Below, piece after piece: positions 187 to 61,408 of a DNA stretch of 64,000 nt. This DNA is from a virus (lineage: Duplodnaviria; Caudoviricetes). The stretch spans positions 756-64,755 of IMG/VR virus record IMGVR_UViG_2838042994_000001. One strand, given 5' to 3'. Made by a program: the position numbers and the translations under genes. The notes beneath the pieces were generated by a model that searched no databases, was not told the DNA's origin, and was given only the letters and a program-made list of their open reading frames with translations. Position 1 is the first letter of the stretch. Each line of letters starts with the position of its first letter.

Positions 187-1082
187 GCCGACATTCCCCT
201 CTTTCGCCCGTCCAGCAGCGCATCGAACGTCGCCATGAATTCCTCTTCCGCCTTCTCCGGCGACCAATAGCGCAGCTCGACGCCGAGCGGATTGTTGTGC
301 TTGCCGTGCCAGTCCATCGGCACGAGATTGACGAGCTCGTCGGCAATGATGCGCTCGTCCGCCTCATGAACTTCGGCCGGCATCTCCCTTGCCAAGGAAT
401 ACCTATCCGCCACCGCAGCCATAACTCGTGCCTCGGCTTCCTTGTAGCCGGTTAGATACGGCTTCACCGGGCGCGGCACGTCGACGAGGTAGGCTTCGCT
501 GGCGTCGTGCAGCAGCGCCCAAAGAGCCACGTCCACGCCTTCCCAGCGCAGCTTGCGCGCCATCAGCACCGAATGCTCGGCGACGCTGTAAAACCGAAGG
601 CAATGGCCAGCATAGCGGCATTGCAGGCTCAGCGAGTGGGCGATGTCCTCGATGAAGACTTCGTCTCTTCGCGGATCCAGCGGCCAAAACTTGCGGCCGG
701 TGGCGGTCTGCATAAAATCGCCGTAGCGCGCGGGCTGCGTGTCTTGATGAAACGCGAAATCGGTCTCGGAAGCGTGTCGCTGCCAATCCTCCTCTGAAAG
801 AACCGGAACGACAGGCTCGCTTTCATCGTCTGCATAGTTGATGCCGACGAGATCTGCGGTGGTTGCGACTTCGCAGGAACGGCGATCAACCACCGATCGA
901 AGGAGGCCGATATACTGGCCGCGCTCTTGCGGCACGTTGTCGTTCGCCGGCACGTACTTCGGCGCCGGCATGGGCTGCGCGCCCATACCGGGAACCATGA
1001 CCGGCTCGTTATACTGTTTTGGCGAAACGGTTATAGCCGGCTCGTGCCGGTGGCGCCATGATGGCAACGTTTTGTTACTCAT
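183..1082 (-). CDS. HD-domain hydrolase (YfbR-like 5'-deoxynucleotidase family)
   Basis: EDIAHSLSLQCRYAGH...YSVAEHS...ALLHDASEAY motifs. Confidence 0.82.
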   Translation of the reverse strand: MSNKTLPSWRHRHEPAITVSPKQYNEPVMVPGMGAQPMPAPKYVPANDNVPQERGQYIGLLRSVVDRRSCEVATTADLVGINYADDESEPVVPVLSEEDWQRHASETDFAFHQDTQPARYGDFMQTATGRKFWPLDPRRDEVFIEDIAHSLSLQCRYAGHCLRFYSVAEHSVLMARKLRWEGVDVALWALLHDASEAYLVDVPRPVKPYLTGYKEAEARVMAAVADRYSLAREMPAEVHEADERIIADELVNLVPMDWHGKHNNPLGVELRYWSPEKAEEEFMATFDALLDGRKRGMSA

Positions 1083-1636
1083 GCGGCCTCCTCTATCGTT
1101 CGGGTTTTGTTGTCATTTGCTGCCTGCAGGTAGGCGATGGCGCTATTGAGCCTGTCTACGCTGTCTTCGACGAGGCCGAGCATCATGTTGCAAGACGTGC
1201 ATAGAAGTCCTCTGATAGCCCCTGTTGCGTGACAGTGATCTACATGGAAGCCGCCTCGACCCTTTGGCTTTGTCGTTTCGCAGATCCTGCACTTTCCTCC
1301 CTGCGCATCGTACATGTCGTCGAAGTCTTCGATCGTGATGCCGTAGTTCTTTCGTAACTGATTGGAGTAGGTCCGGCGCCTATCTTGCTCCTTGCGCTCT
1401 TCTGACCAGCCTTCCTTTCGCTCCTTAACCGCCCGCTTTCTCTTTTGCAGGAGATCCGGAACGCGTTCACGACGCTCCATCTCGTACTTCCGCTGCCTTG
1501 CCGACCAGCATGGAGAACAAATGTACCGCTTGTACTTCTGCATTGAGGCGGTCCAATTCTCGTCAGACAGCATAGCTCCGCAGTCCTGACAGGCGCAGAG
1601 ATCTCCATGCGCCCTCCTTGTTCTAGGTCTTGGCAT
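1079..1636 (-). CDS. Endonuclease VII-like (His-Me finger) free-standing endonuclease
   Basis: CRIC...HVDHCHATGAIRGLLCTSCNMMLG motif. Confidence 0.85.
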   Translation of the reverse strand: MPRPRTRRAHGDLCACQDCGAMLSDENWTASMQKYKRYICSPCWSARQRKYEMERRERVPDLLQKRKRAVKERKEGWSEERKEQDRRRTYSNQLRKNYGITIEDFDDMYDAQGGKCRICETTKPKGRGGFHVDHCHATGAIRGLLCTSCNMMLGLVEDSVDRLNSAIAYLQAANDNKTRTIEEAA

Positions 1637-2133
1637 CAGAACGCCTTACCGCCAGCCTTTTTTCTGTTTTCGATCTGATGATCGGCCCGCGTGCGATTAA
1701 ATTCCATCTTCTCGACGATCGCGCCGCCCAGGTCGTAGCCGAGGAAGGCGGCCAGATCACCGATGCGGATCATGGCGTCGGCGAGCTCGACTTCTGCCAT
1801 CGGCCGGTTCGGCAGCTTGTCGTCCATCAGGACTTTGCCGGGCTTTGATTTGCGAACGCCTTCCATGGCTTCGCTGATTTCGCTTACGATCAGCATGAGC
1901 ATTTCCGGCACGTTGCGATCAAGCGCCTTGCCGGTGGCGAGATCGGTGTACCAGCCTGCCTTTCGGCTCGCGGCGTGGCAGTCGGCGGCGAACAGGTTGA
2001 TGGCGGAGGCGTGGGAATATGCCGGCGACAGCGAAGGCTGCTGGAGGTTGTCGTTGGCTGGCCGCTCCGCATTGCAATCGCATTCTCTCTGCAGGCCGCA
2101 CGCGCAGCCGCCGCCATGGTCGTATTTTGCCAT
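1636..2133 (-). CDS. MazG-like nucleotide pyrophosphohydrolase
   Basis: LMLIVSEISEAMEG...EVELADAMIRIGDL...EKMEFN; start placed at MAKYDH after a GAGGAG RBS. Confidence 0.78.
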   Translation of the reverse strand: MAKYDHGGGCACGLQRECDCNAERPANDNLQQPSLSPAYSHASAINLFAADCHAASRKAGWYTDLATGKALDRNVPEMLMLIVSEISEAMEGVRKSKPGKVLMDDKLPNRPMAEVELADAMIRIGDLAAFLGYDLGGAIVEKMEFNRTRADHQIENRKKAGGKAF

Positions 2134-2194
2134 TCTCTTCTCCTCTTCGTGGTGGTTGCCGCCGACTTGGTTGGTCGGCGGCCGGTGTTGGTGG

Positions 2195-2476
2195 TTAAAA
2201 TGGTAGCCTGGCGCGCATCGGCTCAGACGGATTGCGCGGTATTTCGATGAGTCGAATAACAAGGCTGCTATAGCTGCTAAAGAAATCGTATCGAAACGCG
2301 ATCCACCATTCCCGCCACGTTGGCTTGCGCCGCTCTCCTCCGCCGGCACGGATGGATACGGACGCGACCCTGTGGCCTTTCCTGATTGCCCTGAAAAACT
2401 CCTCAATGACTAGGCCAACCAGAAATCCAGCGATCGCCAAGCCGACGAGTGTAAAAGGGAAAAGCAACCAGATCAC
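2195..2476 (-). CDS. Hypothetical membrane protein
   Basis: Hydrophobic N-terminus; GTGA overlap with upstream gene. Confidence 0.5.
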   Translation of the reverse strand: MIWLLFPFTLVGLAIAGFLVGLVIEEFFRAIRKGHRVASVSIRAGGGERRKPTWREWWIAFRYDFFSSYSSLVIRLIEIPRNPSEPMRARLPF

Positions 2477-59676: not shown

Positions 59677-59704
59677 CCCACACCACATCAGAGGAGACTG
59701 AACA

Positions 59705-60724
59705 ATGGCCAAGCGCGCCACCAAGAATGCTGCCGTCGATTCGGCAGAGGCATCAACCGCACTCACAACCTTCAAGGGCTTCGGCAAGGACTGGAAGTGC
59801 CGCGACTATCAATACCAGCTCGGCAAGACTTATGAGCACGCCGGCAGCGTCGTTCGTTGCGCCGGTGGCGGCTTTCACTCCTGCGAGATGCCGCTCGACG
59901 TGCTGAATTATTATCCGCCGAACACGAGCCGATTTGCTGAAGTCATCGCCGATGGCGCGATCGACAAGGGCAGCGATGACGACGACAGCAAGCTGGCCTC
60001 GGCCAAGATCACGATCAATGTTGAGTTGTCGCTTGGCGAGCTGACGAGAAGAGCCGTTCGGTGGGTCGCCGACATGGCCAAGAAACAAGGCAACGGTCAG
60101 CACACAACGGGCAACTACGGCCATGCCTCGGCGGCGGGTTACCGCGGCCATGCCTCGGCGGCGGGTTACCGCGGCCATGCCTCGGCGGCGGGTTACCGCG
60201 GCCATGCCTCGGCGGCGGGTGACGGCGGCCATGCCTCGGCGGCGGGCAACGGCGGCCATGCCTCGGCGGCGGGTGACGGCGGCCATGCCTCGGCGGCGGG
60301 TGACGGCGGCCATGCCTCGGCGGCGGGTTACCGCGGCCATGCCTCGGCGGCGGGTGACGGCGGCCATGCCTCGGCGGCGGGCAACGGCGGCCATGCCTCG
60401 GCGGCGGGTGACGGCGGCCATGCCTCGGCGGCGGGTGACGGCGGCCATGCCTCGGCGGCGGGTTACCGCGGCCATGCCTCGGCGGCGGGTGACGGCGGCC
60501 ATGCCGAAGTTAAAGGCACGTGCGCTGTCGCGCACGCGCCAGGAGTTGGTGGGATGGCGACGGCAGTGGCTGGAAGCGCGATCAGCCTCGCATATCACGA
60601 TGAAAGCGTCTGGCCGCCGAAGTTGATTGCGGTTCGGTCGTCGATGGTCGGCGAGAACGGCATCGAGGCCGGCAAGAAATACCGCCTGACGAAGGCCGGA
60701 GAGTTCGAAGCCGTCGAAGATTAA
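59705..60724 (+). CDS. Phage protein with conserved N-terminal domain and 14 nonapeptide repeats
   Basis: FKGF...CRDYQY..G..Y...GFHSC..PLDVLNYY; (GHASAAGxx)14. Confidence 0.85.
   Translation: MAKRATKNAAVDSAEASTALTTFKGFGKDWKCRDYQYQLGKTYEHAGSVVRCAGGGFHSCEMPLDVLNYYPPNTSRFAEVIADGAIDKGSDDDDSKLASAKITINVELSLGELTRRAVRWVADMAKKQGNGQHTTGNYGHASAAGYRGHASAAGYRGHASAAGYRGHASAAGDGGHASAAGNGGHASAAGDGGHASAAGDGGHASAAGYRGHASAAGDGGHASAAGNGGHASAAGDGGHASAAGDGGHASAAGYRGHASAAGDGGHAEVKGTCAVAHAPGVGGMATAVAGSAISLAYHDESVWPPKLIAVRSSMVGENGIEAGKKYRLTKAGEFEAVED
60119..60505 (+). repeat. 27-bp tandem repeat x14 (+9 bp)
   Basis: Invariant GGCCATGCCTCGGCGGCGGG followed by TTACCGC, TGACGGC or CAACGGC. Confidence 0.98.
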
Positions 60725-60824
60725 GAATTGCCCGACGGGCAATGGGCGCGGTCGGTGACGGTGGCTGCAACTTTCGTTTCCGTGCCGCGCCCTAACCATT
60801 CACCACCACGAGAAGGAGACAACC

Positions 60825-61082
60825 ATGACGACCAAAAGAAGACAGAAGCCAGCCAACAACAACCGCCCGCAGCCGACGCGGCCCAGCAATTACGAGTTCA
60901 TGCCGTACACCGGGACCGGCACGGAAGTCGTCGACGATCTGACCACGGGCACGGTACCAAGCTGGCGGCTGATGCAGATCGCGCGCTGGCATGATGCCAA
61001 GCACGCCGGCCGCAACGGGCGGATAGCCAATATGCTGCGTGCCGTGGCAGGGATGCAGGATGATGCGAGGGCTGCGGCGTGA
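60825..61082 (+). CDS. Hypothetical protein
   Basis: AAGGAGAC RBS. Confidence 0.6.
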   Translation: MTTKRRQKPANNNRPQPTRPSNYEFMPYTGTGTEVVDDLTTGTVPSWRLMQIARWHDAKHAGRNGRIANMLRAVAGMQDDARAAA

Positions 61083-61408
61083 CACGCCAGCCAGCGAACG
61101 ACAACAAGCCGGCGGGGAGCGTTTATACGCTCTCCGAGGCAGCCGACCACCTCCGCCTCACAACGAGAGGCGTCGCCAAGATAGCGAAGCAGCACGGCCT
61201 TTGCATGGTGCGAGGCCGTGACATACTACTGACCGACAACGACATTGAAGCTATAAAGGATGTACTTCGATGCCCCTCAAACTCTACAAGCGTGGTAAAG
61301 TCTGGTGGATCACCGGCACCGTCCATGGACAGGCTATCCGAGAGTCTACGCGAGCTCACGACAAAGAAGTCGCGGAAGCGATCAGGATCAAACGCGAAGC
61401 GGGCCTAG
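61079..61408 (+). CDS. xis: Excisionase-like HTH protein
   Basis: VYTLSEAADHLRLT...; overlaps integrase start. Confidence 0.65.
   Translation: MTRQPANDNKPAGSVYTLSEAADHLRLTTRGVAKIAKQHGLCMVRGRDILLTDNDIEAIKDVLRCPSNSTSVVKSGGSPAPSMDRLSESLRELTTKKSRKRSGSNAKRA

Follow-up and report, generated by a model that had tools for sequence, protein, structure and literature searches.

In Alphaproteobacteria, the native tmRNA (ssrA) tag is added to proteins by trans-translation and is read by the adaptor SspB-alpha and the protease ClpXP; the tag of Caulobacter has been given (PMC9393093), structures of SspB exist (PDB 2QAS, 2QAZ and 2NYS), and the tag residues contacted by SspB-alpha have reportedly been described (Lessner 2007; Chien 2007). 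Genetically encoded substrates of the same pathway also occur. E. coli RseA(1-108), a natural SspB-delivered ClpXP substrate, possesses an internal SspB-binding segment separate from a C-terminal Val-Ala-Ala degron that is exposed only after cleavage, whereas the phage proteins lambda O, MuA and Mu repressor are replication and regulatory proteins whose lifetime or remodelling depends on the recognition of terminal peptide signals by host ClpX. In eukaryotic viruses, short linear motifs copying a host recognition signal, such as viral degrons and docking motifs that hijack host ligases, have evolved convergently in disordered regions of many viral proteins.

In this work we analyzed a window of 64,000 nucleotides from a temperate rhizobial prophage, in which the two conserved parts of the tmRNA tag of the host (Ala-Asn-Asp-Asn, ANDN, at the head and Ala-Ala at the very end) were found in the flexible ends of about a third of the non-virion proteins. 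The first-pass annotation had listed 16 ANDN motifs in 15 proteins, five of them as complete C-terminal tags, and this observation was confirmed and turned out to be stronger than reported. Six-frame translation retrieved ANDN at the 16 listed positions, each in a long open frame (15 on the minus strand and one on the plus strand), and the five complete tags were as described (Table 1). One motif of the window had been missed, in the LamG-domain protein, and two more were located just upstream of the window in a dNMP kinase.

Table 1. Positions in the window of the genes carrying ANDN, and of two peptidase genes considered in the text.
Gene	Strand	Product	ANDN	Context
183..1082	-	YfbR/HD-like phosphohydrolase (Pfam match below the cut-off)	936-947	N-terminal extension; conserved in both relatives
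1079..1636	-	Endonuclease VII (PF02945, residues 93-171)	1109-1120 (residue 173)	Complete C-terminal tag mimic; 9 residues to the end; ends Ala-Ala
1636..2406	-	256-aa protein with no Pfam family	2047-2058	
2473..3834	-	453-aa protein of unknown function	2503-2514	Complete C-terminal tag mimic; orthologues in TM3_3_14B and NV1.1.1 keep ANDN but end Val-Ala
6532-7239		Trypsin-like peptidase		
7419..9800	-	LamG-domain protein (793 aa)	8133-8144	Atypical context (Trp-Trp-Asp before the motif, no Pro after it); probably chance or buried
18407..20986	-	Tape measure protein (859 aa)	20837-20848 (residue 47)	Conserved in NV1.1.1; only carrier in the virion module
26971-27603		Prohead protease		
27600..28877	-	HK97-type portal	27627-27638	Complete tag mimic; 8 residues to the end; ends Ala-Ala
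31626..32501	-	HNH endonuclease	32457-32468 and 32031-32042	Near the N-terminus and in mid-protein, respectively; both outside the HNH domain
34989..37295	-	Prim-Pol plus AAA_25 primase-helicase	36171-36182	Linker just before the ATPase domain; ends Ala-Ala (split arrangement)
37258..39096	-	C5 cytosine DNA methylase (PF00145)	37288-37299	Complete tag mimic
39525..40712	-	N6/N4 DNA methylase, CcrM-type family (PF01555, residues 89-366)	39549-39560 (residue 385)	Complete tag mimic
42856..43383	-	Siphovirus Gp157 family	43360-43371 (residue 5)	Ends Ala-Ala
44182..46077	-	SNF2/DEAD helicase	44230-44241	C-terminal tail, followed by an acidic tip like the C-terminal tip of SSB
50504..51088	-	DUF669, OB-fold SSB-like protein (predicted fold)	50576-50587	Disordered C-terminal tail, 23 residues from an end that is not Ala-Ala
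54248..54598	-	Cro-like HTH	54419-54430	After the HTH; ends Ala-Ala; conserved in TM3_3_14B and NV1.1.1
61079..61408	+	HTH_17, excisionase-like (weak Pfam match)	61094-61105 (residue 6)	

The distribution of the motif was clearly different in the phage and in the host. The whole 6.05 Mb genome contained 34 six-frame ANDN, of which 19 fell within positions 244939-306259 of contig C4 (about 61 kb) and one of the other 15 was the host tmRNA tag itself. In called genes, 15 ANDN were obtained in the phage against 0.16 expected (Poisson, P = 8e-25), whereas the host presented 8 against 9.3 expected. A similar frequency in host genes had been set beforehand as a refutation of the proposal, but the density was about 200-fold lower in the host. 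Non-Ala near-variants (xNDN), whose occurrence the first-pass annotation had mentioned, were also enriched in the phage (7 against 0.63 expected). The 11 anagrams of ANDN occurred 0 times in the phage, apart from NDNA, which overlaps ANDNA. Codons varied at every wobble position (GCA/GCC/GCG, AAC/AAT, GAC/GAT), all copies were in coding frames of unrelated genes and their flanks were unrelated. This indicated that the motif is not a DNA repeat or a mobile-element remnant and that selection acts on the protein. No evidence was found in favour of a functionless origin through compositional bias, a repeat or hitch-hiking, and these controls, together with the conservation described below, refute it.

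ANDN was always placed outside Pfam domains, in tails and linkers, and occurred in 17 proteins of unrelated Pfam families. Phages 16-3, RHph_TM3_3_14B and NV1.1.1 carried 18-20 copies each. The motif was conserved inside otherwise hypervariable tails: 102 of 120 portal homologues displayed ANDN in the last 26 amino acids and 115 of 120 ended in Ala-Ala, whereas 115 of 120 DUF669/SSB-like homologues kept ANDN, often as two copies. In the AlphaFold2 model of the DUF669 protein the tail had pLDDT below 50 next to a core above 90; the model of the portal was too poor to count. ANDN therefore displays the placement and conservation of a short linear motif arisen in unrelated proteins.

A second signal, absent from the first-pass annotation, was found at the carboxy-termini. 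Ala-Ala ends were present in 24% of the phage proteins (17/71 genes) in contrast with 5% of the host proteins (248/4853; Fisher, P = 1.2e-7), a difference not explained by start-stop overlaps, and relatives gave 16/70 and 20/83. Non-virion genes presented 16/42 Ala-Ala ends and 14/42 ANDN carriers, whereas the virion module presented 0/17 and 1/17, respectively. The five complete mimics all had the Ala-Ala end. By a hand tally, ANDN carriers ended in Ala-Ala more often than other proteins (8/17 vs. 10/57), although the other nine carriers, among them the SSB-like protein, the helicase and the HNH nuclease, lacked this end, so that a complete degron applies only to a subset.

The host tag, identified with ARAGORN, was ANDNYAEARLAA, which begins with ANDN and ends in Ala-Ala. 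In 28 tmRNAs sampled across Alphaproteobacteria, 26 tags started with ANDN, all ended in Ala-Ala and the middle varied, these two elements being exactly the conserved ones; the residues after ANDN numbered 6-9, with a mode of 8. Complete mimics in the window had 7-9 residues after ANDN, and among the 102 portal homologues with the motif the value was 8 or 9 in 80 cases, thus matching the spacing of native tags. The host encodes SspB (C2:380106-380549), located 150 bp from ssrA, 90% identical to PDB 2NYS and homologous to Caulobacter SspB (2QAS/2QAZ), with a conserved C-terminal tail motif, as well as ClpP and ClpX on contig C10, whereas no SspB was found in the phage.

All these factors taken together are best explained, with a probability of about 0.5, if ANDN, or more fully [Ala/Pro]-Ala-Asn-Asp-Asn-x-Pro, is a short linear motif that this phage lineage has evolved repeatedly in the disordered ends and linkers of unrelated proteins, and that acts as a hard-coded SspB docking motif which, together with a ClpX degron, controls the turnover of early proteins. 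In this view, the motif would dock into the peptide groove of the host SspB, whose C-terminal tail tethers cargo to ClpX, and the Ala-Ala end would be the ClpX-binding half of the tag. Proteins with both parts at native spacing would behave as ssrA-tagged proteins and be degraded quickly by ClpXP, those with the two parts separated would be delivered in the way RseA(1-108) is, and those with ANDN only would be tethered to SspB. The net effect would be short, host-controlled lifetimes for cytoplasmic early proteins (replication, recombination, DNA modification and regulators), with clearance of unassembled portal, whereas assembled virion proteins would stay stable. The motif, its enrichment, placement and conservation and the presence of the host machinery were established by the analysis, whereas binding to SspB, degradation by ClpXP and the biological purpose are inferred from sequence alone. 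The interpretation of the first-pass annotation, namely programmed turnover of phage proteins via SspB/ClpXP or titration of SspB, was thus partly supported: every sequence-level prediction of tag mimicry that could be tested held, but the functional step remains inferred and turnover cannot be told apart from titration.

Some results do not fit easily with this reading. Roughly half of the ANDN carriers lack an Ala-Ala end, and in the DUF669 family the motif sits 16-45 residues from an end that is not Ala-Ala; ANDN therefore has a role that does not need a canonical ClpX C-degron. The phage motif prefers Pro at +2 (26/59), whereas native tags mostly have Ala there, some orthologous full tags end in Val-Ala or Asn-Ala, and a portal built to be degraded is counter-intuitive. 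Four gamma-proteobacterial phages with a homologous Sak4/DUF669 module carried no mimic of the tag heads of their hosts, so that co-variation of the motif with the host tag could not be shown.

The frequency of carriers with ANDN but no degron would suit a sink better than a substrate, and it seems possible, although unlikely, that the motifs bind SspB and ClpX in order to flood and competitively inhibit this host pathway during lytic growth rather than to time the phage's own proteins, which could stabilise ClpXP-labile factors such as antitoxins of abortive-infection modules or cell-cycle regulators such as CtrA. About 19 motifs and about 18 Ala-Ala ends sit on proteins expressed together, tandem ANDN copies in the SSB-like tail raise the number of binding sites per protein, and inhibition of a host protease has a precedent in T4 PinA and T7 Gp4.5, which inhibit Lon. 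However, a sink would need neither the native head-to-end spacing nor the exclusion of Ala-Ala ends from virion proteins, and one abundant decoy would do the job more cheaply than editing about 30 genes.

The carriers with ANDN only, along with the extended consensus ([A/P]ANDNxP, with an aromatic residue at -3 in some copies), which goes beyond what the native tag offers, could also point to a reader other than SspB, of host or phage origin, such as an assembly or localisation hub for the early-protein factory or another protease or chaperone, the resemblance to the tag head being then coincidental or only partial. This alternative is somewhat less unlikely than titration but remains doubtful, since no other ANDN reader is known, the motif co-occurs with Ala-Ala ends at native spacing, and carriers are functionally too diverse for a replisome hub (Cro-like and Xis-like regulators, a dNMP kinase, methylases, the portal and the tape measure). 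Moreover, phages sharing little beyond a head module (RHph_Y3_1) still carry the motif in early proteins, which argues for a host-encoded reader, phages that share almost no early genes both use it, which argues against a phage-encoded reader, and the phage encodes no SspB-like protein.

The accessible location of the motifs and the presence of a trypsin-like peptidase and a prohead protease gene in the phage (Table 1) would be compatible with a cleavage site for a phage or host peptidase, or with a site of Asn/Asp modification, but this seems very unlikely. Carriers are mostly early cytoplasmic proteins, whereas the trypsin-like enzyme has only been described as exported, in the first-pass annotation, and would sit in the lysis region; cutting at N-terminal residue 5 or 6, or 8 residues from the end, would achieve little, and neither the Ala-Ala ends nor the match to the tag would be explained.

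A broader and more doubtful possibility is that a whole lineage of temperate alphaproteobacterial phages (16-3 and relatives) uses tag mimicry as a proteome-level control layer. By writing the head and tail of the host tag into roughly a third of their non-virion proteins, these phages would hand early-protein lifetimes to SspB-ClpXP, and during lytic growth the same motifs would saturate that essential protease, which could arrest the host cell cycle or disarm protease-triggered defences. This would be the first bacterial-virus example of systematic degron or adaptor-motif mimicry.

Compared with motif mimicry by eukaryotic viruses, the pattern found here shares the repeated appearance of a short host-like signal in disordered regions of many viral proteins, but the host is bacterial and the machinery is an AAA+ protease adaptor; no bacterial or phage counterpart is known to us and none was found in the literature searched. 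Lambda O, MuA and Mu repressor are individual proteins with idiosyncratic signals, none of which is known to copy the SspB-binding head, and no genome-wide motif is known among them. The split arrangement of the primase, the Gp157 and the Cro-like proteins resembles that of RseA, whose SspB-binding sequence, however, is not known to resemble the ssrA head and which is a single host protein rather than a proteome-wide pattern. With the native tag, the phage copies share the head, the Ala-Ala end, the head-to-end spacing, the position at an accessible, unstructured end and the presence of the same host machinery. In contrast, they are encoded in frame within the ORFs instead of being added by trans-translation, and are therefore mimics and not real tags; many of them are at N-termini or in linkers, or lack the Ala-Ala end, and the middle of the tail is unrelated (acidic in portals).

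The analysed region corresponds to positions 245166-309165 of contig C4 in a 6.05 Mb, 58-contig genome of the Rhizobium/Agrobacterium type and consists almost entirely of a prophage of about 62 kb, whose genes run mainly on the minus strand and which includes a tyrosine integrase gene. The head genes were about 84% identical at the DNA level to those of Rhizobium phages RHph_TM3_3_14B and RHph_Y3_1, whereas the terminase region matched Sinorhizobium phage NV1.1.1. Synteny at the protein level with TM3_3_14B and NV1.1.1 covered most of the genome, whereas Y3_1 shared only the head and lysis modules. 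The coordinates of the features considered are collected in the table. Among them, a NUMOD3/AP2 homing-endonuclease-like gene, whose product ends in Ala-Ala, and a trypsin-like peptidase gene lie between the lysis region and the left-end early genes, and a separate first-pass annotation assigned the area of a 347-aa ORF without a Pfam family to a TIGR-Tas-like guide array.

Coordinates of features in the prophage window, in the host contigs (C) and in a related phage
Feature	Location	Coordinates	Strand
NUMOD3/AP2 homing-endonuclease-like gene and trypsin-like peptidase gene	window	5047-6018 and 6532-7239	
ANDN missed by the first-pass annotation	window	8133	
Virion module	window	12194-27603	
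SNF2/DEAD helicase gene	window	44182-46077	-
C-terminus of the helicase gene	window	44182-44229	-
Methyltransferase of RHph_TM3_3_14B; window interval considered with it (clamp-binding motif and DnaN-like sliding clamp)	RHph_TM3_3_14B; window	36002-36841; 48573-49631	
C-terminus of the DUF669 gene	window	50504-50575	
347-aa ORF without Pfam family	window	56011-57054	-
Tyrosine integrase gene	window	61270-62424	
Host tmRNA gene	C2	379613-379953	
Host tmRNA gene and sspB together	C2	379613-380549	
Two ANDN-carrying loci outside the prophage	C40; C28	1255-1659; 52491-55073	

A six-frame translation located ANDN at every one of the positions listed in the first-pass annotation, whose observation therefore held in full, together with one further copy that it had missed and two more just left of the window, in the N-terminal extension of a dNMP kinase. 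The complete genome contained only 34 six-frame ANDN, of which 19 were in this prophage and one was the tmRNA tag itself. When genes were called with a codon-usage model trained on the long ORFs of the host, the phage proteome (17.8 k residues) held 15 ANDN against 0.16 expected, whereas the host proteome (1.69 M residues) held 8 against 9.3 expected, so that no avoidance of the motif by the host was seen. The anagrams of ANDN occurred 0 times in the phage, and non-Ala xNDN variants were also about 11-fold enriched. All three wobble positions varied among copies and orthologous copies in the relatives used different codons; a repeat at the DNA level was rejected on these grounds, and selection therefore acts on the peptide. 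Two of the few ANDN outside the prophage had a phage-like context (Pro-rich, in linkers), one in a Cro/C1-type HTH protein right after its HTH domain and the other between the caspase domain and the Sel1/TPR repeats of an 860-aa protein; these may belong to other mobile or defence elements that use the same motif.

On the host side, ARAGORN found one tmRNA with the tag ANDNYAEARLAA. The sspB gene lies about 150 bp downstream, and the same pairing, within a few hundred bases, appeared in many of the 60 alphaproteobacterial genomes searched. The SspB protein was 90% identical to the Agrobacterium protein of PDB 2NYS and homologous to Caulobacter SspB (2QAS, 2QAZ). Twenty-seven alphaproteobacterial SspB sequences, an alignment from which the locus of one unpublished genome (G040) was left out, shared an invariant C-terminal L-D-x-F-R tail, which is the ClpX-tethering motif. 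The clpP and clpX genes sit together on contig C10, whereas no SspB homologue was found in the prophage. In 28 tmRNA genes sampled evenly across the class, G040 not being among the loci analysed, 26 tags started with ANDN and all ended in Ala-Ala, the middle being variable and 6-9 residues (mode 8) following ANDN. The phage motif therefore copies exactly the two invariant elements of the native tag.

Pfam placed every typical copy of the motif outside recognised domains: one right after the endonuclease VII domain, one after the N6 methylase domain, and others in the Prim-Pol/AAA_25 linker, before the Gp157 and HTH_17 domains, after the Cro-like HTH, before the dNMP kinase domain, and in the tails of the helicase and the DUF669 protein. 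An AlphaFold2 model of the DUF669 protein presented a confident predicted OB-fold core (pLDDT above 90) with SSB-like Foldseek matches, whereas its tail (residues 161-194), which contains the motif, had pLDDT below 50; the corresponding model of the portal reached a mean pLDDT of only 54 and was too poor to use. Across 59 instances in four phages, position -1 was Ala (28) or Pro (19) and position +2 was Pro (26); in the window alone, Pro at +2 occurred in 9/19 copies (p = 3e-7). Five proteins carried complete mimics, with 7-9 residues after ANDN and an Ala-Ala end. Some tails carried additional elements. Right after its ANDN, the SNF2/DEAD helicase ends in an acidic tip with a final aromatic residue (D-D-D-I-Q-F), resembling the C-terminal protein-docking tip of bacterial SSB, and the orthologues in TM3_3_14B and NV1.1.1 end in D-D-E-V-P-F. 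The extreme end of the SSB-like DUF669 protein displayed a second conserved element, R-(R/K)-P-W-G-x-K, kept in most of 120 homologues while the rest of the tail varies, which is probably another docking motif. In the methyltransferase tail of TM3_3_14B, ANDN was followed by Q-L-S-L-F, the consensus beta-clamp-binding motif, and then by an Ala-Ala end; these phages, including this prophage, encode their own DnaN-like sliding clamp.

The motif was conserved among relatives. TM3_3_14B presented 18 ANDN and NV1.1.1 presented 20, many at orthologous tail positions, whereas Y3_1 had 2 plus a Thr-for-Ala variant on its portal; the classic phage 16-3 had 18 coding patterns against 0 for the reversed-pattern control. 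Among the 120 closest portal clusters (68-91% identity; Rhizobium, Sinorhizobium, Mesorhizobium, Shinella and metagenomes), 102 had ANDN in the last 26 residues and 115 ended in Ala-Ala; the linker before the motif and the spacer after it were hypervariable, while the spacing was 8 or 9 residues in 80 of the 102. In the DUF669 family (45-100% identity), 115 of 120 members carried [A/P]ANDN in a low-complexity tail, often twice, and located 16-45 residues from an end that is not Ala-Ala. This is the signature of a short linear motif under purifying selection. In order to look for co-variation with the host tag, more distant homologues were also compared. Portal homologues at 30-55% identity had acidic disordered tails but no ANDN, no ANDEN/ANDDN and no Ala-Ala end; the tail mimic is lineage-specific, and this comparison does not bear on the reader. 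Likewise, four gamma-proteobacterial phages with a homologous Sak4/DUF669 module (Pseudomonas Iggy, Vibrio ALK, Providencia PSTCR7 and Klebsiella Kpn2-P2) had 0-1 ANDN and 0 ANDEN/ANDDN, no mimicry appearing there with which host tags could be compared.

A second, independent signal was found at the C-termini. Ala-Ala ends occurred on 17 of 71 called phage genes (18 when counting endonuclease VII) as compared to 248 of 4853 host genes (odds ratio 5.8; p = 1.2e-7); Ala-Ala is also the commonest C-terminal dipeptide of host proteins (5.1%, against roughly 2% expected from composition). The possibility that these ends are a by-product of ATGA start-stop overlaps was rejected, since host genes with such overlaps ended in Ala-Ala at about 6%, like other host genes. 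The relatives showed the same bias (16/70, 20/83 and 6/46). Both signals were partitioned by function: in the window, 16/42 non-virion genes ended in Ala-Ala and 14/42 carried ANDN, in contrast with 0/17 and 1/17 in the virion module. The portal and the large terminase were the only morphogenesis proteins with Ala-Ala ends. In a hand tally, ANDN carriers ended in Ala-Ala more often than other proteins (8/17 vs. about 10/57).

The simplest account of these results is that ANDN is a docking motif for SspB, the only known reader of that sequence, and that the Ala-Ala end is the ClpX degron; together they would tie the lifetimes of cytoplasmic phage proteins to SspB-ClpXP, while proteins that end up in the particle would be spared. 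The motif, its enrichment, placement and conservation, the excess of Ala-Ala ends and the presence of the host machinery are established by the sequences, whereas SspB binding, ClpXP-dependent decay and the biological purpose are inferred from sequence alone. The proposal of the first-pass annotation, that the phage programs turnover of its own proteins via SspB/ClpXP or titrates SspB, was in consequence supported only in part. The ANDN-only class, the Pro preference at +2 and the Val-Ala ends in some orthologues show that the mimicry is not a simple copy, and titration of SspB-ClpXP, or a different reader, remain live alternatives. That phages sharing few genes both use the motif favours a host reader. 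For the portal, assembly would bury the tail, which is also inferred. All five DNA methylases in the three annotated genomes carried complete mimics; this fits a need to limit CcrM-type methylation in an alphaproteobacterial host, again an inference, and, if SspB reads these motifs, may explain how CcrM-type phage methylases are kept from disturbing the methylation-driven cell cycle of the host.

Full-text literature searches found no description of phage-encoded tag mimicry. New in this work are the conservation counts in large families, the match in spacing to an empirical set of native tags, the partition between virion and non-virion proteins, the absence of depletion in the host, the extended consensus and the negative comparison with gamma-proteobacterial phages. 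If SspB reads these motifs, they would provide a simple, testable rule for which phage proteins are short-lived, natural SspB-alpha ligands in varied contexts for the study of adaptor specificity, and ready-made degradation tags for rhizobia and agrobacteria. They also suggest that sspB or clpX status could alter lysogeny, induction and burst in Sinorhizobium phage 16-3, a classic genetic system in which experiments are straightforward. Regulated proteolysis would then become a genome-wide design principle of a phage family, rather than a property of a few proteins such as lambda O or MuA.
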